Source of the DNA: Myxococcota bacterium
Lineage (GTDB): Bacteria; Myxococcota_A; Polyangia; Palsa-1104; JAEUJZ01
DNA: 64,000 bases
Assembly: GCA_025057315.1 (NCBI GenBank)
Contig: JANWXW010000048.1
Coordinates: 93,140 to 157,139 of the forward strand
Direction of reading: 5' to 3'
Shown here: piece by piece, positions 49,995-58,787 of the stretch
How the letters are laid out: each line of letters begins with the position of its first letter
Position numbering within the stretch: the stretch's first letter is position 1
Notes under the pieces: model-generated
What the model saw: only the letters and a program-made list of their open reading frames with translations
Databases searched by the model: none
Told to the model about the DNA's origin: nothing
Made by a program: the position numbers and the translations under genes

Positions 49995-52900
49995 ATGCTA
50001 TATTTAGCAATCTACCACCCCATGACGGTCGCCTGCCCTCAGTGCTCCGCGCAGTATGAACTCCAGGCTTCGCTGATCCCGCCGGCTGGCATCCTGATGC
50101 GTTGTCCGTCCTGCCTTCACACGTTTCCCGTGAAGCCGGACGAAACCTCACTGGCCATCCTAGAGGACGAGTTCACTCCGCCCGGTGGTGTGACACCACC
50201 CCGGGCACCAGTCCCTGGCTCCGAGGCGGCCAGCGATCCGCAGCTGCCCTTCCCCAAGAGGGCTGCGCTGCGATCGGTCGGCGCGGCTTTCGACCCCGCC
50301 CCCCTCTCTGTCGAGGCGAGCGACCTGCCGGCTCCCAAGCCGCGGCCTGGCGAGCCGTCGCTGCCGTGGGCGGGCCAGGTGCTGCCCGAGCTGGCGGTCC
50401 TGGTCCCACCGCCTCCGCCGAGTGCACCAGCGGTGCTTCCTCCCGTGCTCGACCTCGGTGCCTCGGAGGGCGCATCGACCCCATGGGCAGACCTGCCAGC
50501 CCCCGTGGGCTCCCCACGCCGCGCAGCGGCAGACCTGCCAGCTCCCGTGGCACCTGACCTCCCAGCTCCCGTAGGCTCAGCTCGTCGCCCAGCGGCAGAC
50601 CTGCCAGCCCCCGTGGGCTCCCCACGCCGCGCAGCGGCAGACCTGCCAGCTCCCGTGGCACCTGACCTCCCAGCTCCCGTGGCACCTGACCTCCCAGCTC
50701 CCGTGGCACCTGACCTGCCCTCTCCCATCGTGGCAGAGCTGCCCCTGCCGGTAGAGCCTGAGCTGGTAGCGCCAGTTGAGGCACCGCTGCCAAAACCGGT
50801 CGGGGAGACCGCTAGGGAGTCGGCAGAGCTGGCGAATCTGCAACACCCCGGCACGACGGCCCCGACCGAAGCCTCGACCCAAAGAGAAGAAATCTCCTCG
50901 CTGGAGGCATTTGACGAGGCGGTTGCAGACCTGCTGACCGAGCCTATCCCGGCCGATGCGCTGGCCCCGGAGCCGAAACAGGAGCGACAGGAGCGACCTG
51001 CGGCTGCTGCCCGGCCGGCGTGGTCGCGCCGTCGCATCCTCGCCATCGTCGGAGGGTCTCTCGCTCTGCTGGTTGTAGGGGGTGGCGGTACCGCGTGGTA
51101 CCTGCTCCACGGGCGGCGCCCTGCCGAAGCTCAAGCATTGGTGGACCAGGCCTGTGTCCTGCTTGGCGACGATCTGTACCTGTCCTTCCGCAAGGCAGCC
51201 GAGCAGCTCAGCAAGGCGCAGGCATTGCATGCCAACGACAGGGAAATCGTGGGTTTGCTGGCGCAGGCCTATCTGGGTGCTGCCCGTGCCGGCGGCTTGA
51301 GTGAGGTCCAGCAGGCAGACGAGGTGCTGCGGAGACTCCAGCCACGGGATCAGGGAAACCCCGAGGTCGCCAAAGCCCGTGCCCTACGCGATCTGCTCGC
51401 CGGAAGGGTCGATGATGCCCGTCGCACCCTGGCGCCCCTGGCAAGCAAGAACGACCCCCGGGCCGCGGTCTACCTAGGCTGGGTCGAGTTGCAAGCCGGC
51501 AAGTTGTCAGCGGCCGAACAGGCCTTCCGGGAGGCCCTGGCGCGGGACGACAAGTTGCCTGCCGCCCATCTAGGCATCGGCCAGGTGCGCCAGCGCCAGG
51601 GAGACCGACCGGGTGCGATGGCGGCCTACGACCAAGTGCTACAGAGGCGGCCCACGCACTTTACTGCGGCTGTCGCAAAAATCCAGCTCTCCGACGATCC
51701 TGCTGCGGAGAGCCGGCTCCTGGAGACGGTGGCCAAGCTCCAGGCATCGGCCTCTCCCAGAGAGCTGGCCGAGATCTACACGCTGCTCGGCACCCAAGCA
51801 CTGGCTCAGTCGCGCCGCAAGGACGCGGAGGAGCGGCTGCGCAAGGCCCTGGCTGCCGCGCCGTCGTTTGTGCCGGCCCAGGTAGCGCTGGCGGGGCTGC
51901 TGTGCGAGCAGGACAAGACCGACGAGGCCTATGCGCTGTCACGGCGGGCGGTCGCTGCCGAGCCGAAGAACGTGGAAGCGTGGCTGGTGCTGGTGCGGGT
52001 GCTCTTGCAGCAGAAGAAGCCGCTGGACGCGGGCCAGGCATTGCAAACGCTGGTCCAGCTGGCGCCCAAAGACGCGCGCGTGCTCTACTGGCAGGGGCGT
52101 CGTGAGGAGGCCGTGGCTGCGGCAGGCAGCGATGACAAGGCCGCGCAGTTCTACCAGAAAGCGGTGGAGGCCGACCCGCGGTACATCGATGCCTACATCG
52201 GGCTGTCCCGGGTGCTCACCCGCCAGGGACGGGCAACCGACGCGCTGGCCGCGCTGCGACAGGTCGCGGCCCAGGCCCAGGACGACCCCCAGCTGGCGGC
52301 GGCCCTGGGGGATGCCTACCTGGCTGGCGGAGACAGCGTGAAGGCCGAGGAGGCGCTGCGCCTGGCGCTGAGCCGGAAGCCGGACCTGCTCGCGGTGCGC
52401 ATGAGCCTAGCCCAGGCACTGGAGCAACAGGGGCGCCTAGCCGAGGCTGAACGGGAGCTGGCTACCGTGGCGGAGCTGAACAAGAGCTACCCCGGCCTGA
52501 GCGAGCGCCGGGCCCAGCTCTTGCTTCGCCAGGGCCGCTACGAGGAGGCAGAGGTCCAGTATTTGGAGGCGGCCGCTGCTCCGGGCGCAAGTCAGGCGCT
52601 TCGCTTGGATGCGGCCAGCTACAACCTGAAGAGCCACCCCGCGGAGGCGGAGGAGATCCTTCGGGCCGTGCTCAAGGAGGACCCGCGCTCCAGCCGAGCG
52701 CATACGCTCTTCGCCCTGCTGCGGCTCCAGCAGCAGGAGGTAGGCGAGGCAGCGTTGCACGCTGAACTGGCCACCAAGCTGAACGACTCGCCCGAGGCGC
52801 TGTTGGCGCGGGGCATGGTGCTTCTGGCCCAGGGCCGCCGCCTGGAGGCGCTGGACTCGCTGGCCAAGGCGCGCCGGCCCCCGGTGGAGGCAATGGCCAT

Positions 52901-53420
52901 GGTCATGCACGCCCGCCAGCTTGCCGCCGAGAACCAGCACGCTGAGGCAATGGAGGAACTGAACAGCTTCATTGCGCGCCACCAGCAGCTGCTAGCCGAT
53001 CGCATGATCTATCGCCCCGACGATGTCTCTGAGTTGCTGGGTGGAGCCTACCTGCTCCAGGGCGACCTGCTCACCCTGGCCCAGAAGGAAGACAAGGCGC
53101 TGCGCTTTTATGAGTTGGCAGCGCGCACCATGCCCAAATCCGGTGAGGCGGCAGCCCGCTACGGTCGGGCGCTCTACCATGCAGGCAAGCGCAGCGCAGC
53201 CATTCGGGAGCTGGTGCGGGCCATTCAACTTGGTGGCGACCAGGCCCCCTACGCCTTGGAATCTTACCTGTTGCTGGGCGACAGCTATCGCGAGGCCAAG
53301 CAGCGGGCTGAATCCCTGCGCGCCTACAACAAGTGGCTGTCTCTGGCGCCGCCAACAGCGCCTGAGCGGCACGAAGTGGAGACCCACGTGCTCGCACTGA
53401 GCGATCCACGCCGGCGCTGA
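49995..53420 (+). CDS. Zinc-ribbon (MJ0042-like) / Pro-rich tandem-repeat / TM / TPR-repeat protein, 1141 aa
   Basis: N-terminus CPQCSAQYEL...CPSCLHTF. A PAPV-type repeat block, then one TM (ILAIVGGSLALLVVGGGG). About 700 aa of TPR-like repeats. A hairpin follows the stop. Confidence 0.75.
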   Translation: MLYLAIYHPMTVACPQCSAQYELQASLIPPAGILMRCPSCLHTFPVKPDETSLAILEDEFTPPGGVTPPRAPVPGSEAASDPQLPFPKRAALRSVGAAFDPAPLSVEASDLPAPKPRPGEPSLPWAGQVLPELAVLVPPPPPSAPAVLPPVLDLGASEGASTPWADLPAPVGSPRRAAADLPAPVAPDLPAPVGSARRPAADLPAPVGSPRRAAADLPAPVAPDLPAPVAPDLPAPVAPDLPSPIVAELPLPVEPELVAPVEAPLPKPVGETARESAELANLQHPGTTAPTEASTQREEISSLEAFDEAVADLLTEPIPADALAPEPKQERQERPAAAARPAWSRRRILAIVGGSLALLVVGGGGTAWYLLHGRRPAEAQALVDQACVLLGDDLYLSFRKAAEQLSKAQALHANDREIVGLLAQAYLGAARAGGLSEVQQADEVLRRLQPRDQGNPEVAKARALRDLLAGRVDDARRTLAPLASKNDPRAAVYLGWVELQAGKLSAAEQAFREALARDDKLPAAHLGIGQVRQRQGDRPGAMAAYDQVLQRRPTHFTAAVAKIQLSDDPAAESRLLETVAKLQASASPRELAEIYTLLGTQALAQSRRKDAEERLRKALAAAPSFVPAQVALAGLLCEQDKTDEAYALSRRAVAAEPKNVEAWLVLVRVLLQQKKPLDAGQALQTLVQLAPKDARVLYWQGRREEAVAAAGSDDKAAQFYQKAVEADPRYIDAYIGLSRVLTRQGRATDALAALRQVAAQAQDDPQLAAALGDAYLAGGDSVKAEEALRLALSRKPDLLAVRMSLAQALEQQGRLAEAERELATVAELNKSYPGLSERRAQLLLRQGRYEEAEVQYLEAAAAPGASQALRLDAASYNLKSHPAEAEEILRAVLKEDPRSSRAHTLFALLRLQQQEVGEAALHAELATKLNDSPEALLARGMVLLAQGRRLEALDSLAKARRPPVEAMAMVMHARQLAAENQHAEAMEELNSFIARHQQLLADRMIYRPDDVSELLGGAYLLQGDLLTLAQKEDKALRFYELAARTMPKSGEAAARYGRALYHAGKRSAAIRELVRAIQLGGDQAPYALESYLLLGDSYREAKQRAESLRAYNKWLSLAPPTAPERHEVETHVLALSDPRRR
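50480..50735 (+). repeat. In-frame tandem repeats (15/24/111-bp periodicities) encoding ADLPAPVGSPRRAA / APDLPAPV units
   Basis: Near-identical nucleotide blocks (gcagacctgccagcccccgtgggctccccacgccgcgcagcg...) occur twice, with shorter gcacctgacctcccagctcccgtg units four times. Confidence 0.6.
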
Positions 53421-53436
53421 GCGCGGCAGGGCCACC

Positions 53437-53480
53437 TAACCCTCCCCCTGTCCTGCCCTGGGCAGGGAGGCAGGCGGGTT
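53437..53480 (+). terminator. GC-rich hairpin(s) just after the stop of the TPR gene (CCTGCC/GGCAGG arms)
   Basis: cctgccctgggcagg and ggcaggcgggttcctgcc inverted repeats sit 20 to 60 nt after the stop. There is no clear U-tract. Confidence 0.35.
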
Positions 53481-54453
53481 CCTGCCGCTTGCCGCCCTGC
53501 TTCGATAAAGAAAGCCTCGATGTCCGATGGTGTGTTCGCAGAGTCCAATGTGGACGGAGGCTGGCCCAGGGCACCGCTCGGCCTATGCAATCCGGTCCGA
53601 TCGCTGGCGCTATGAGAGCGCAGCGCCTTGGGGGCTCGGCGATGAAACCGAGCGGCGGCCGTACGAGCTGCTGGCCGGACCTCTGGCGCTCATGAGGCAC
53701 TTGCCGCGCTGATCGACATCCCCCTCCATGGTGCAAGAGGGGTGGCAGGGCGGCGAACGACCCTGCCCTCTGCCATCACGGCTGCGCGGGCGTTGTCGCC
53801 GAGGCACAACCTGACACTCCCAAGGGGCGCCACGTTTGAGCGATGCGTTTGCACCCGTCCCCGGGGCCGACCGGGTCGCACCTTGACAGCTGGACTTGGA
53901 ATGGGCCCTCCGCGCCCGTAGCGTGCGTACACAAGGCCCAGCAAATGAAACAGCTGCAGATTTCTTCCCCTCCGCTGGAAGCTGTGAGAGGGTGCCCAAG
54001 TCGATGCAAGGTGCCCCTATGACCCCCTCGCGAATCCGCCGTCAGGGTCATCCCGTGCATTCGCGATTCTCTTCGGCCCAAGCCCAGCAGGCAATGCGCA
54101 ACATGGTGGATCGGGCTCTGCGCGATGTGGCCCTGCTCGTCTCAGCACGGGGTCTGTGTGCGCGCCGGGCAGCGGAACTGGCCGAGCTGCCGCGATGGGA
54201 TGTCGATGCGGTCAGCTCCGTCTGCCTCTGCTCGACCTGCTGCAACAGCCGCCTGCACTGACCCCACGACCCCGCACAGGGGGGTCGATGCAGGTGCAAG
54301 TCTACTATGTGGCCAGCTCCTCCCCAGACAGCCCTGCCTTTGGCGGTTGGGTCTATGTTTGTACAGCCCTGCACCCTGGCTGTGCCGCGCGGGTCCATCA
54401 GAGCAGGCAACATGGAGGGGGCGCCACGCATGTAGGTGTAGGAGTTGGTGCTG

Positions 54454-54636
54454 CTATCCGTCGCAGCTTCCCGTGGGACAGCCAGCGGCAACGGCGGTGG
54501 CGACGGACTGAATCGTAGCAGCGACGCCGCCTGCTGGGTGAGCGGCGTGGCTCGCATGCAGATTCAGGCGGGCGCACAGGATGGCTGCCAGAGCACTCGT
54601 TAGAACCAACGCGAGGGTCAGACGAAACCCACTCAT
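54454..54636 (-). CDS. Small secreted peptide (60 aa; signal peptide plus 38-aa Cys-containing mature part)
   Basis: ATG preceded by GGAGAGAGG at a 5-nt spacing. MSGFRLTLALVLTSALAAILCA is a signal peptide. Mature part ...AVAAGCPTGSCDG. Lies downstream of a roughly 240-bp low-GC island. Not otherwise supported. Confidence 0.35.
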   Translation of the reverse strand: MSGFRLTLALVLTSALAAILCARLNLHASHAAHPAGGVAATIQSVATAVAAGCPTGSCDG

Positions 54637-54925
54637 AGGTCCTCTCTCCGGCCGGGGGGTTCGTGTTCCGTCTCCGACATCGCCTAACTACATACGATGA
54701 CGATCTGACTCTTCACTGGCTACGGTAACACGAATCTAGCCATCGAAGAATAGTGATAAAAAGCACGAAACAATGATTACGAGTTAGGCGACATGGGCCG
54801 ACACCAGAGGCAGCCTGCTACATTGAGAAATATCAATGAATTTCAATGGTTAGTTTTCGTACCAGAGAGGACAGCAGGGGTCTATGAGGGCGGCGACAGA
54901 CGCAGCTGGTAAAACGAAACCGGAA

Positions 54926-57466
54926 TCAGGGCCACGAACGCTGTGCCAGCAGAAGTTGGTCCGGGGACTCCAGGAGCCAGAGATCGCTGTTGAAGGGCTG
55001 TGTGGCGTAGACGATGTACTTGCCGTCCGGAGAGATCGTGAAGCCGAACAAATTGGAGATGCGCCGCGGGCTGACGACGGGACGAGCCACCGCTGCGCGC
55101 AGGTCCACTTCATAGATATGCGGGTAGTCGGCCAGGAGCAGCTTCCCGTCGGGAGCAAAGCGCATGAACTTAGAGCGGAGCAACCTACCCTGCGGGTCGG
55201 TGATGCGCAGGCGCCGCGTCTGCTCGGGCCCTCGAGACAGCGCCACCAGGCCCTTGCTGGTGCCCACCGCCACCTCACGCCCGTCGGGGGACCAGGTGGG
55301 ACGGCCAAATCCATCCTCCACCCAACACACCGCCTCTTCAGGCGAGGCCAGCACTGGCCGCACCCACAGTCCCCCGGCGACGGTGCCCTCGCGGCCCTCC
55401 ATGCGCGTGGTGGCCAGCAGCTTGCCATCTGGTGACAGGGCCGCATGCATTTCGTTGCTGCCGAACCGGATGCTGGGCGGCGGTCCCCCGGACAGAGACA
55501 CCACCTCCAGGCTGCCGGCGAGGTTGCTGCCGACCACCAGCGCGCGGGACCCATCGACGAACGTCTCTGGCCACAGCGTGCGCGAGACGGCCTTGCGCAC
55601 CTGGCGCCCTACTCCGCCGGTGCGGGGGAGTACCACCACCGAGTTGGCGTTCTTGTCGCCATCGTTTTCGCCTACCATGACCGCGATCGACTGGCCATCT
55701 GGTGAGAACAGAGGCCATGCGAGCACATCGGTGGGGATGTTGACGCGAATGATCGAGCTGTTGGTCCCATCCCGGCTGGTGCTCCACAGCTCGAAGCCCT
55801 CCTGCGCGCGCGTGTAGACCAGGCGCTTGCCGTTTGCGGTCAGCGACGGATTATGGGGAATGTCACTCGGGGGCAAAAGGTTCAGCAGGGGCTCGCGGCC
55901 GGTCACCGACACGGAGAGCAGGCCGCGCCGTTCGCTGCCGAAAATCAGACGTTTGCCGTCTGGAGTCCACTGGACGCGGTCATAAAACGTCGGCTGATCA
56001 TCGAGCGTCACCGCCGGACCACCAGAGACCGGCAGCACGCGCAGCCCACCGGGAGCAGGGCCGGCCACATAGGCTAGCTGCTTGGCATCGGGAGAGACCG
56101 CTGGACACAGCTCGAAGCGCGCCGGCGGATCGGCCTCGATTGGCCGGATGCCTTCGCTGCCCAGTTCAAAATAGGCCAGGTGCCAGCGCCCCGTGTCCTC
56201 GTTGTAGTGAGACAGGGCCAGCCGCCGCCCGTCTGGGAACCAGCTGGGCGTGGTGCCAGCCACCAAGCGCTGAGGCGGGGACTCGACACCCAGGCTAATG
56301 TCCACCATGTAGATCTCAGCCGCGCGATCGAGGAAGTGGCGGCCAGTGGAGAACGCGATGCGACGCGAGTCAGGAGCGAAGCTGATCCACGTGACCGACT
56401 GGCCCGGGGCAGAGAAGCGCTGGGGTTGTACGGTGGCATCGAACAGTGGCCGCAACAGGCCTTCCATGACGCCATCGCTCTCTTCCATGTAGGCCAGCAA
56501 CTTTCCATCGGGGGAAACCGTGCCAAACTGGGCGCCGCCCCACTGGCGGGTGAGGATGCTCTTGAGCGGCTCACGCCGCATGGGCGGGGTGGGCTCACGC
56601 TCGCCCGCCGGCAGGGAGAACAGACCCAGCACCAGGCCTGGCTGGATGATAAGGGCCAGAGCAGTCAGGACAGCCACTGCAGAGCCAATGGTCACGCCAA
56701 TGATGGGGGCGCGGAGCCATGGCCGCGACAGGGCCCGTTCCAAGGCCATCGCATCCCGGTAGCGGCGCCGCGGGTCCCGATCAGTGGCCCGGCGAATGAT
56801 CGGCCGCAGCCACGCCGGTGGCCGCCGGTCCCCATAGAGCTCCTCGAGCACCAGACCAAGCGCATAGACATCGGTGGCAGGGGTGACCGCCTTGCCCAGC
56901 TGCTGCTCCGGGGCCATGTACCGTGGTGTGCCCAGAGCCACCCCGGTCACCGTGTCGCGTGGGCTGCCCTCCTTGCGCGCGACGCCAAAGTCGAGCACCA
57001 CGGCGCGGCCGTTCTTGTCGAGCAGGACGTTTTCTGGCTTGAGGTCCCGGTGCACCACGCCCTTTTCGTGCGCCGCAGCCACGCCCGCACAGATCTGCCG
57101 CGCGATGGACAGCGCCTCGTCGGGGTGCAGGGGGCCGCGGTCCAGACGTCGACGCAGCGTCTCGCCCTGCACGAATTCCATGGACAAAAGCACGCTGCCG
57201 TCTCCATCTCGGTAGGCATCGTGCACGCGACAGATATTGCGGTGGGAGAGTTCCCGGGCCAGCGCGGCTTCGCGCACGAGGCGGTCGGTGTAGTCCGGGT
57301 CCGCGGCCAGGTCCGGCCGTACGTGCTTGACCGCCACCTCGGTCTTGGTGAAGGTATCGAGCGCGCGCACAACAATACCCATCCCCCCGTGGCCGATCAC
57401 TTCCCGCACAAGGAAGCGGTCGGCCAGTAGGGATCCCACTCGCGGGCCCTGGTGCGCCTCGGTCAT
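54926..57466 (-). CDS. Ser/Thr protein kinase with TM segment and C-terminal TolB-like (PD40 / WD40-like) beta-propeller
   Basis: Kinase motifs (GHGGMGIVVRA...AVK, HRDLKPENVLLD, DFG, APE). TM IIGVTIGSAVAVLTALALII. Then repeated ...SPDG..LAY.. propeller blades. Confidence 0.85.
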   Translation of the reverse strand: MTEAHQGPRVGSLLADRFLVREVIGHGGMGIVVRALDTFTKTEVAVKHVRPDLAADPDYTDRLVREAALARELSHRNICRVHDAYRDGDGSVLLSMEFVQGETLRRRLDRGPLHPDEALSIARQICAGVAAAHEKGVVHRDLKPENVLLDKNGRAVVLDFGVARKEGSPRDTVTGVALGTPRYMAPEQQLGKAVTPATDVYALGLVLEELYGDRRPPAWLRPIIRRATDRDPRRRYRDAMALERALSRPWLRAPIIGVTIGSAVAVLTALALIIQPGLVLGLFSLPAGEREPTPPMRREPLKSILTRQWGGAQFGTVSPDGKLLAYMEESDGVMEGLLRPLFDATVQPQRFSAPGQSVTWISFAPDSRRIAFSTGRHFLDRAAEIYMVDISLGVESPPQRLVAGTTPSWFPDGRRLALSHYNEDTGRWHLAYFELGSEGIRPIEADPPARFELCPAVSPDAKQLAYVAGPAPGGLRVLPVSGGPAVTLDDQPTFYDRVQWTPDGKRLIFGSERRGLLSVSVTGREPLLNLLPPSDIPHNPSLTANGKRLVYTRAQEGFELWSTSRDGTNSSIIRVNIPTDVLAWPLFSPDGQSIAVMVGENDGDKNANSVVVLPRTGGVGRQVRKAVSRTLWPETFVDGSRALVVGSNLAGSLEVVSLSGGPPPSIRFGSNEMHAALSPDGKLLATTRMEGREGTVAGGLWVRPVLASPEEAVCWVEDGFGRPTWSPDGREVAVGTSKGLVALSRGPEQTRRLRITDPQGRLLRSKFMRFAPDGKLLLADYPHIYEVDLRAAVARPVVSPRRISNLFGFTISPDGKYIVYATQPFNSDLWLLESPDQLLLAQRSWP

Positions 57467-57659
57467 GGACTAGTTACTGCCTCTCGATTCATGCCTAGGA
57501 CTTGCATTACGGCAACCAGCATGCGGATTGTTGCCCGATGCGCGTCATTGTGCAAGCCCATGAACGGCAAAATGATAGCGATTTTCTCTGCTCCAGGCGC
57601 TTTGGATTTCCTACGCCCTTGACCACTGCCCATCCGTCCCCCTATAGTACGCGCACTCC

Positions 57660-58787
57660 ATGCTCGCTGAAGCCGCCGTCCCCTCGGAGCAGGCCGGAAC
57701 GCTCCTCACCAGCATGGAACCCAGTGTAATAATTGGAGTTTTTCTTTTCCTCGCAGTTTTGATCGGGCTTCTAGTTTGGTTTTTCTTATCACAAAAAAAT
57801 CGAGCCACAAAGAGGCCTGCTGAGGCAGCGCCCTCCCGCCCAGAACCGGCACGGGAGGCGCGAGCCCGGCTACGGGACCATGCCCTGGAAGCGGGCTTGG
57901 AGAAGACCCGCGGGGGCTTCATCGCCCGGTTGGGCAGCCTGCTCGGTCGCAAGCAGATCGATGCCCAGCTGCTGGCCCAGATTGAGGAGACCCTGCTTAC
58001 TGCGGACATCGGCCCGAAAACTGCCGCCCTGCTGTTCCAGCGCATCAAGGAGGCGCTCCCCCAGAAGGAGCTGGACGATCCAGAGACCGTCTTCCGCGCG
58101 CTGGAGCAGGAGTCGCGTCGGCTGCTGGAGGTGCCGGCCCCCCCGCTGGACTTTACCCGCCATCGGCCGTTTGTCGTGCTCGTCGTCGGGGTGAACGGCT
58201 CGGGCAAGACCACCACGATTGGCAAGCTGGCAGCTCAGCAGGTGCAGCTCGGGCGCAAGGTGATCCTGGCAGCGGGCGATACCTTCCGCGCCGCGGCCGT
58301 GGAGCAGCTGGAGGAGTGGGGACGGCGCGCGGGCGCCCAGGTGGTCAAGGGCAAGGAGGGGGGCGATCCGTCGGCCGTTATCTTCGACGCTGTGCGCCGG
58401 GCGCAACAGGAGGGGGCGGACGTAGTTCTGGCCGACACCGCGGGTCGGCTGCACGTCAAAGCCCAGCTCATGGAGGAGCTGCAGAAGGTGCGGCGCGTAA
58501 TCCGCAAGGCAGAGCCTACCGCCCCCCACGAGACCTGGCTGGTGCTGGATGCCACCACGGGTCAGAACGCCATCGCGCAGGCAGCCACGTTCAAGGAAAT
58601 GATGGAAATTACGGGCATCATCCTGACCAAGCTGGATGGCACGGCCAAGGGGGGAGTGATCCTGGGGATTTGCAACGAGCTGCAGGTGCCGGTGCGGTTC
58701 ATCGGCATCGGCGAGAAGGTGACTGACCTTCGCCCCTTCGACGCTGCGGAGTTCGCGCAGGCCCTCTACGCACGGGAGGGCCGATGA
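57660..58787 (+). CDS. ftsY: Signal recognition particle receptor FtsY
   Basis: NG domain with [31 protein letters not shown]-terminal membrane-anchoring segment. An alternative start is 57714. Confidence 0.9.

Follow-up and report, generated by a model that had tools for sequence, protein, structure and literature searches.

What, if anything, is encoded between two convergent genes of an uncultured Myxococcota bacterium whose gap contains no obvious protein-coding sequence? The gap lies in a window of 64,000 nucleotides (64 kb; contig JANWXW010000048.1 of assembly GCA_025057315.1), to which all coordinates refer, between the stop of a TPR gene and the stop of a gene for a Hanks-type Ser/Thr kinase with a C-terminal beta-propeller ectodomain of the PD40/TolB-like type (Table 1). 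A first-pass annotation of this DNA had reported a low-GC island and a candidate gene for a small secreted peptide in an otherwise ORF-poor (ORF, open reading frame) stretch, and as a description of the stretch this was accurate. We find that the stretch is composed of three parts: a cassette formed by the kinase gene and a 60-codon peptide gene, a lineage-specific spacer, and the terminator-like hairpins of the TPR gene. The possibility that we develop here is that the peptide is exported and acts on the propeller of the kinase. Other loci and proteins that were compared are given as L- and P-numbers, and all of the sequences compared are assemblies of uncultured metagenomes. The source is a metagenome-assembled genome of an uncultured "Myxococcales bacterium"; two other assemblies of the strain, L004 (contig JAVQWY010000019.1 of GCA_033578775.1) and L001 (the Logan assembly of SRR15826901), are 99.9% identical to the window.

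The 60-codon ORF reads MSGFRLTLALVLTSALAAILCARLNLHASHAAHPAGGVAATIQSVATAVAAGCPTGSCDG and is preceded by the ribosome-binding site GGAGAGAGG. Both had been noted in the first-pass annotation, which placed the site 5 nt from the ATG; the spacing is 4 nt. A GGAGA core is found 5-9 nt 5' of the ATG in all seven lineages known to carry the gene. The gene is uncalled in both other assemblies of the strain, and the exact peptide has no entry in a collection of 15 billion proteins, from which it follows that no pipeline ever called it. A search of 5.8 billion clusters with the kinase protein returned just three close relatives, at 100%, 80% (L002), and 57% (L003) identity, and both L002 and L003 have a small ORF that can be aligned with that of the window, on the same strand and about 280-300 nt past the kinase stop. 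A profile search gave three further proteins (P0122-P0124), and an exhaustive HMMER search of 1.84 billion representative proteins added P0125 and P0126 and no others. The relatives, from six other lineages and 57-69 amino acids long, occupy the same position in L002, L003, L005-L007, L009, and L010/L011, and are represented as proteins by P0121-P0126. Pfam, NCBIfam, and PDB hold no matching family. A search of GTDB species representatives with the kinase ectodomain and then the peptide motif returned no relatives from this collection, in which the source lineage is absent; a search of JGI metagenome contigs with the peptide motif and the leader DNA pattern also returned none, which is a weak negative, as L009, expected to match the leader pattern, was not returned either. 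The peptide represents a rare, previously unannotated small-protein family.

The relatives share the pattern M-x3-RL..A..L-x-SALA ... CPxGxC, with RL..A..L[TA]SALA as the N-terminal signature. Residues M1, R5, L6, A9, L12, S14, A15, L16, and A17 do not vary among the seven lineages, and T13 is replaced (by Ala) solely in L010. The same holds for C, P, G, and C at the C-terminus, which stay unchanged even where the kinase is just 56-57% identical. The middle linker is rich in Ala, Pro, Ser, Thr, and Gln and varies in sequence and in length, every indel being in frame. The third codon position takes the largest share of the substitutions. Counted over all pairs at positions one, two, and three, the N-terminal block has 140/116/230 substitutions and the C-terminal block 46/34/82; for the four close sequences, the respective figures are 9/14/36 and 3/0/12. 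The gene and its cassette are very probably real, and the alignments show selection at the protein level. Alternatively, no protein might be made, and the conserved DNA might be a non-coding RNA or a regulatory region in which the ORF is incidental. The poor codon usage of the ORF, an in-frame stop in the L008 ortholog, and an adjacent leader that is conserved without coding would fit this explanation, but third-position bias is present inside the ORF and not in the leader, the linker indels all have lengths divisible by three, six of the seven lineages retain the start codon, the ribosome-binding site, and the position of the stop, and there is no Rfam family. We consider the explanation extremely improbable.

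The first-pass annotation had further suspected a frameshifted or pseudogenised secreted protein, or programmed frameshifting, on account of an ORF in another frame that overlaps the 3' part of the peptide gene. This suspicion was not borne out. The genes of L002, L005, and L008 and the protein P0122 all end at ...GSCDG-stop, as the window does. Comparison of the window with L001 and L004, which addresses the same point at the level of assemblies, reveals zero indels across the gap; the sole difference is one single-nucleotide polymorphism at 54596 (C in the window, G in L001 and L004), which changes S14 to T in the signal peptide. The overlapping ORF of 169 codons has a length expected by chance, no family matches, and a score of -0.14 under a codon log-odds model that was trained on 30 long ORFs of the window and in which real genes average 0.30. 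With four orthologs sharing the stop, no indels, and a second-frame ORF of chance size, we reject both a frameshift and a pseudogene. A separate observation concerns L008, in which an in-frame TAG at codon 29 is followed, still in frame, by GCPTGSCDG-stop; the TAG could be a sequencing error, mark a recent pseudogene, or be read through.

The N-terminus of the peptide resembles a Sec-type signal peptide. Arg5, in the n-region, precedes a hydrophobic core (h-region) at residues 6-20, where the Kyte-Doolittle mean over 15 residues reaches up to 2.5, the hydropathy peak of 2.5 extends over residues 6-22, and A15-L16-A17 provides the A-x-A motif of signal peptidase I in all seven lineages. We infer from the -3/-1 rule that cleavage would occur after A-L-A, and the two C-terminal Cys might form a disulfide. 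A lipobox of the form L-[AS]-[GA]-C with a conserved Cys is not present, as C21 (in the context A-I-L-C) is found in the window alone and its place is taken by Gly or Thr in the relatives. The small secreted, Cys-containing peptide of the first-pass annotation therefore stands as a conserved gene, its export being a prediction.

The peptide gene is associated with the kinase. In this protein the catalytic motifs of the predicted cytoplasmic kinase domain are intact (VAVK44, HRDLKPEN139, DFG159, and APE185), and a single hydrophobic, transmembrane helix is found at about residues 253-288 with basic residues ahead of it. Because the propeller is C-terminal to this one helix, it should be periplasmic. 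The ectodomain matches the TolB propeller model TIGR02800 with E = 2.4e-17, at 63 bits compared to a family cut-off of 343. Orthologs of the kinase that are 56-80% identical end 279-305 nt 5' of the peptide ATG, on the same strand, in L002, L003, L005, L009, and L010; these are the five other lineages with readable upstream DNA, and the window makes six. Among kinase orthologs with readable downstream DNA, none was found that lacks the peptide gene. The genes beyond the pair are different: ftsY and the TPR gene in the window, a Band_7 gene and a convergent outer-membrane-like gene in L003, an outer-membrane-like gene in L005 and L009, and gcvT in L010. The flanks thus vary while the pair stays together, which suggests that the conserved unit consists of the kinase and the peptide.

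PD40/TolB propellers are known to bind peptides and proteins, as exemplified by TolB-Pal and TolB-colicin. This property and the strict genetic linkage lead us to propose that the exported peptide acts on the periplasmic beta-propeller of the kinase, a reading to which we assign a rough probability of 0.45. The peptide gene would be expressed from a promoter-like region of its own, with a non-coding leader of about 85 nt and a strong ribosome-binding site. The product would be exported and its signal peptide cut after A-L-A, and the two Cys would close a six-residue disulfide ring. Because the N-terminus is Sec-like, this C-x4-C loop and the propeller would be located in the same compartment, where the ring could act on the propeller as a ligand, a co-receptor, or an inhibitor, and production of the peptide would tune kinase signalling. 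A more specific version, in which the peptide is a self-made ligand of the adjacent kinase whose C-P-x-G-x-C disulfide ring docks in the PD40 propeller and switches the kinase, is in our judgment rather unlikely.

Several points speak against an action of the peptide on the kinase. The case for export, expression, and binding is one made from sequence. The peptide ORF has a codon score of -0.05, which places it near the 5th percentile of real genes, and a GC content at third codon positions of 0.65 compared to about 0.82; the L008 ortholog (L008:204-377, on a 593-nt ENA contig) carries the codon-29 TAG; and a predicted hairpin in the leader is without covariation and broken in L009. The family is tiny, with about seven lineages in the 1.84 billion representative proteins, and statistics of co-occurrence therefore rest on few, related genomes. 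Linkage of the genes may reflect co-regulation instead of physical interaction. Finally, the C-terminal motif of the peptide is near-invariant among orthologs whose kinase ectodomains share just 52-58% identity, a combination that would suit a structural or chemical function (metal, redox) equally well.

This last point supports an explanation in which the peptide is exported but does not bind the kinase, the C-x4-C loop serves metal, redox, or envelope-stress chemistry, and the linkage reflects shared regulation or physiology. Two Cys four residues apart are a common metal- or redox-active arrangement. The conserved promoter-like region and leader of the peptide gene, which suggest that it is regulated separately from the kinase, would also be in agreement with such a role. 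However, the pair has been kept at a distance of 279-305 nt through at least three genomic contexts, and no metal-homeostasis or redox genes are consistently found nearby. We regard this explanation as somewhat unlikely.

The peptide might also be the precursor of a ribosomally synthesized and post-translationally modified peptide (RiPP), with thioether (lanthionine-like) rings formed by the Ser/Thr and the Cys of C-P-T-G-S-C and the kinase helping in the modification. A faint match of residues 32-58 to the class II lanthipeptide LchA2 (NF038161) points in this direction, but at E = 0.1, with 13.1 bits where the cut-off is 26, it is at chance level. Likewise, distant PD40 kinases in L012 and L013 adjoin other small C-x4-C peptides, in L013 also a kinase-LanC-like gene, but these peptides are not homologous to that of the window. 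The Sec-like N-terminus is unlike a RiPP leader, the kinase carries no lyase or cyclase domains but a transmembrane helix and a periplasmic propeller, and the gene tables of L003, L004, L005, and L010, whose flanks differ, contain no conserved dehydratase, cyclase, LanB/C/M/KC/L, radical-SAM, or MbnB-like neighbor. A RiPP precursor is therefore very improbable. Bufferins (DUF2282, BufA) are RiPP precursors that are small, contain Cys, and have N-terminal Sec signal peptides, features that the product described here shares; unlike in bufferin operons, no MbnB-like (DUF692) or DUF2063 enzymes are encoded at the kinase-peptide loci. The distant PD40 kinases deserve mention in their own right. Next to P0005 and P0004 (28% identical) lie members of another family of small peptides, which have no signal peptide, follow the pattern MxFxxxDLM...LLCG..T.., contain C-x4-C motifs, and end in ...ALLRQQLxxTLS. 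Together with a Pkinase + LanC-like gene in the L013 neighborhood, these features (L012:2649-2966, L012:6703-6942, L013:6692-6967, and L013:8344-9516) may represent an undescribed lanthipeptide-like system.

Returning to the proposed action of the peptide on the kinase, the closest architectural parallel comes from Bacillus, where in Rap-Phr, and also in PlcR-PapR and NprR-NprX, a short ORF with a secretion signal lies directly 3' of the cognate signalling gene in the same direction (PMC5199041). The arrangement described here is alike in that a small ORF with a secretion-signal-like N-terminus lies 3' of a signalling gene on the same strand (at 279-305 nt in 6/6 lineages), in that the informative part of the pro-peptide is C-terminal, and in that the small gene can have its own promoter. 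In contrast to the cytoplasmic TPR receptor (RRNPP) of Rap-Phr, the partner is a membrane-bound Hanks-type kinase with a periplasmic propeller; moreover, the host is a Gram-negative myxococcote, the intergenic region is about 290 nt long, there is no sequence homology, and the C-terminal motif is conserved and not diversified into pherotypes. Because the class of receptor differs, we consider the kinase-peptide pair an architectural analogue and not a member of the RRNPP cassettes.

With respect to the receptor, PknD of Mycobacterium tuberculosis is a receptor-type Hanks kinase with a beta-propeller ectodomain. Receptor-type Hanks kinases with WD40- or PQQ-repeat propeller ectodomains have been surveyed (PMC1262709). 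The kinase in the window has the same organization, with an N-terminal kinase domain, one transmembrane helix, and an extracytoplasmic propeller as interaction module; unlike in the surveyed kinases, this propeller is of the PD40/TolB/tricorn type. We are not aware of any secreted peptide genetically linked to such a kinase with a propeller ectodomain, and the ligands of these kinases are mostly unknown. The propeller of TolB binds Pal and the disordered TolB-box peptide of colicin. The similarity to TolB thus extends to a periplasmic propeller of the PD40 type, which in TolB binds a short peptide epitope; it does not extend further, as the protein described here is a kinase and not a component of Tol-Pal, matches TIGR02800 far below the cut-off, and is known from sequence alone.

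Table 1. Position and nature of the features discussed, in coordinates of the 64-kb window.
Feature	Coordinates	Strand	Basis or remark
TPR gene	stop at 53420	+	ORF listing
Gap between the convergent genes	53421-54925		TPR stop to kinase stop
Two GC-rich stem-loops past the TPR stop, terminator-like, without a T-run	53421..53500	+	minimum free energy -46.6 kcal/mol
Lineage-specific spacer, about 0.95 kb, without a supported gene	53501..54453		no coding signal in any frame
68-amino-acid "hypothetical protein" MDW8282375.1 (GenBank)	54055..54261; 80 codons from ATG 54019	+	called in L004
169-codon ORF in another frame, overlapping the 3' part of the peptide gene	54048..54557	-	chance ORF
Unannotated gene for a 60-amino-acid peptide (export predicted)	54454..54636; stop codon 54454-54456	-	relatives at the same position
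Codons 52-60, G-C-P-T-G-S-C-D-G (C-x4-C loop)	54457..54483	-	conservation in seven lineages
Codons 1-17, Sec-type signal-peptide-like N-terminus	54586..54636	-	invariant Arg5, hydrophobic core, S-A-L-A end at residue 17
Ribosome-binding site GGAGAGAGG	54649..54641	-	read from the sequence, 4 nt 5' of the ATG
Low-GC island, GC 0.49	54640..54880		lowest GC content in the window
Conserved leader element AGTCAGATCGYC-N(4-12)-TAGTW-N-GGSSATGT	54677..54710	-	one match per locus
Promoter-like architecture	54722..54766	-	dyad GTGCTTTTTATCAC (54766..54753), 22 nt, extended -10-like TGTTACCGT (54730..54722)
Hanks-type Ser/Thr kinase with C-terminal PD40/TolB-like beta-propeller ectodomain	54926..57466	-	Pfam Pkinase, PD40, Tricorn_N

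The DNA between the kinase and the peptide gene contains the low-GC island of about 240 bp seen in the first-pass annotation. Its GC content over 54640-54879 is 0.487, just 0.15% of all 240-nt segments in the window are as low, and the minimum over such segments (0.467) falls inside it. The window has one other island below 0.52 (57558-57814, GC 0.508), which separates the kinase gene from the divergent ftsY and presumably contains the promoters of these two genes. AT-rich DNA is also present 5' of the L008 ortholog, and over about 130 nt 5' of the peptide ATG conservation is higher than in the middle of the ORF. We infer that the island is a conserved intergenic control region of the peptide gene with promoter function. 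It contains a composite of a GTG-N8-CAC dyad, 22 nt, and an extended -10-like TGnTAnnnT, with identical spacing in the window, L002, L003, L005, L008, and L009; in L010, GTA replaces GTG and the spacing is 1 nt shorter. The composite occurs once on both strands of the window (128 kb), compared to 0.00 expected in shuffled sequences, for a pattern that was derived post hoc from these same sequences. That it is also found in L003, where the rest of the intergenic DNA cannot be aligned, argues for a function.

The half-sites of the dyad resemble the CRP/FNR consensus TGTGA-N6-TCACA (in the window, TGTGN-N6-TCACN). GTG-N8-CAC is present in six of the seven lineages and by eye agrees with the consensus at 7-8 of 10 positions, and the dyad lies exactly 25 nt 5' of TAnnnT; its implied center is at about -44.5, compared to the canonical -41.5 of CRP/FNR. 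A scan of the gap with sigma-70 and terminator consensus patterns gave no promoter sites and one terminator at chance level, and no sigma-54 promoter was found in the intergenic region of the window. Two more distant lineages, and just these, have a sigma-54-type TGGCACG-N4-CTGC about 55 nt 5' of the dyad (L003:4464-4478 and L009:1012-1026).

Between this composite and the ATG lies a putative 5' untranslated region of about 85 nt (54637-54721). It contains a conserved leader element that is found once per locus and always 5' of the small ORF in six of the seven lineages; L003, whose leader is 31 nt long, is without it. Gene callers extended P0123 and P0124 through the leader from an upstream ATG (MEDSQIAVV...), and an upstream in-frame ATG is also present in L002, L005, and L008. 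In the window this extension is broken (by a TAG and by being out of frame), and substitutions in the leader are spread over the codon positions as 8/10/9, that is, without codon periodicity; we therefore reject the extension as coding. A structured RNA leader of the riboswitch type is also unsupported: 0/15 predicted pairs covary, the z-score of the minimum free energy is +0.68, and the stem is broken in L009. The leader element may work at the level of RNA or as an operator in the DNA.

The gap as a whole contains no long protein-like ORF, in agreement with the first-pass annotation. The position-specific GC profile is flat in every frame, codon log-odds reach at most 0.16 over all ORFs and sliding windows, and the longest open frame, of 176 codons, is matched or exceeded in 50% of simulations (183 +/- 44 codons). 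No gene is called here in L001 (Logan), and only a 68-amino-acid ORF on the plus strand is called in L004 (NCBI). Past the peptide gene, the window differs from its relatives in having the spacer. It has no copy elsewhere in the window and no counterpart at the related loci, against which tblastx gave 21-33-bit composition noise alone. In the relatives, the next gene follows within 16-180 nt of the peptide gene, a convergent outer-membrane-like gene at 16-123 nt in L003, L005, and L009, and gcvT, beginning at 180 nt on the same strand, in L010. The spacer is located where the cassette meets a neighbor, the TPR gene, other than that of the relatives, and no remnants of their convergent outer-membrane-like gene were found in it. 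The simplest reading is that the spacer is non-coding DNA left at a rearrangement junction.

The convergent gene of the relatives (L003:4818-9200, L005:2618-4210, and L009:1437-1547) encodes 530 amino acids in L005 and 1460 in L003 and ends in ...KLQAQL[TV]F-stop. A C-terminal Phe is typical of outer-membrane beta-barrels. The gene has no Pfam or NCBIfam match and leaves no trace in the 64-kb window. Within the spacer, a 15-nt inverted repeat (53720-53734 and 54407-54421, 14/15 complementary) brackets 672 nt. One of its arms overlaps GGCGCCCCC, a sequence that in L008 forms the left half of a perfect 10-bp hairpin past the peptide stop, and no significant terminator hairpin is found past the peptide gene of the window; something may therefore have been inserted into a former terminator of the peptide gene. 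As an origin of the spacer we rejected a mobile element (miniature inverted-repeat transposable element or insertion sequence): no target-site duplications are seen by eye, there is no second copy in the window, and the plus-strand ORF is found on two contigs alone.

An alternative to the spacer as rearrangement debris is that it hides a functional element, either a protein of 68 or 80 codons on the plus strand or a small RNA. The first-pass annotation had singled out the Cys-rich 80-codon ORF together with a TTGACA hexamer and a GGTGCCC direct repeat. The ORF and both motifs exist, but a gene is not supported. TTGACA at 53883 has no -10 element after it, and the repeat (53991 and 54010) is unremarkable because the window contains 33 copies of this 7-mer. 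In favor of a gene, the 68-amino-acid ORF is called in the NCBI annotation, and no other frame of the spacer reaches as high a codon score (0.11-0.16 over 54021-54200). However, this score is within the top 5% of non-coding frames, that of the ORF itself is borderline (0.02-0.04), the protein forms a singleton cluster among about 15 billion proteins, and there is no match in Pfam, NCBIfam, PDB, or plasmids. Furthermore, there is no promoter-like site or good ribosome-binding site, the single-sequence AlphaFold model is one long helix of low confidence (predicted local distance difference test 67), and the spacer DNA is present in no relative. A deep protein search with the nine spacer ORFs concatenated gave no match at E <= 1, a result that is uninformative for either side, as the identical 68-amino-acid entry P0127 was also missed. 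The plus-strand ORF is probably spurious, and a functional element in the spacer is improbable.

The suggestion of a non-coding RNA in the gap fared no better. The Rfam covariance search returned two chance-level microRNA hairpins alone (E = 1.4-2.6, 19-20 bits compared to 71-99), both located on the terminator-like hairpins of the TPR gene, and a scan of the gap for tRNA and tmRNA returned none. These hairpins, which the first-pass annotation had described as stable, are indeed so, modestly above chance (z = -2.44, with 6/200 shuffles as good). The TPR gene itself encodes 905 amino acids in GenBank and forms a 1141-codon ORF in the window. The N-terminal part of its protein contains tandem repeats of the DLPAPV(G/A)... 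type (50480-50710), with repeat-unit shifts compared to L004.

The locus illustrates that in a high-GC genome a conserved gene can escape calling while a probably spurious ORF on the opposite strand gets annotated. Its dyad, extended -10-like motif, and leader element form a small set of conserved non-coding motifs that could help in finding the regulator of the peptide gene. What bacterial eukaryote-like Ser/Thr kinases sense with their extracellular domains is largely unknown, and kinases of this type are very numerous in myxobacteria. A peptide gene that accompanies one of them through varied genomic contexts provides a concrete and testable candidate for a ligand or partner. If the more specific version, with the peptide as a self-made ligand of the kinase, is true, then the pair would represent a peptide hormone and its receptor kinase in a Gram-negative myxococcote, analogous to signalling in plants and animals and distinct from the known quorum-peptide systems of bacteria.

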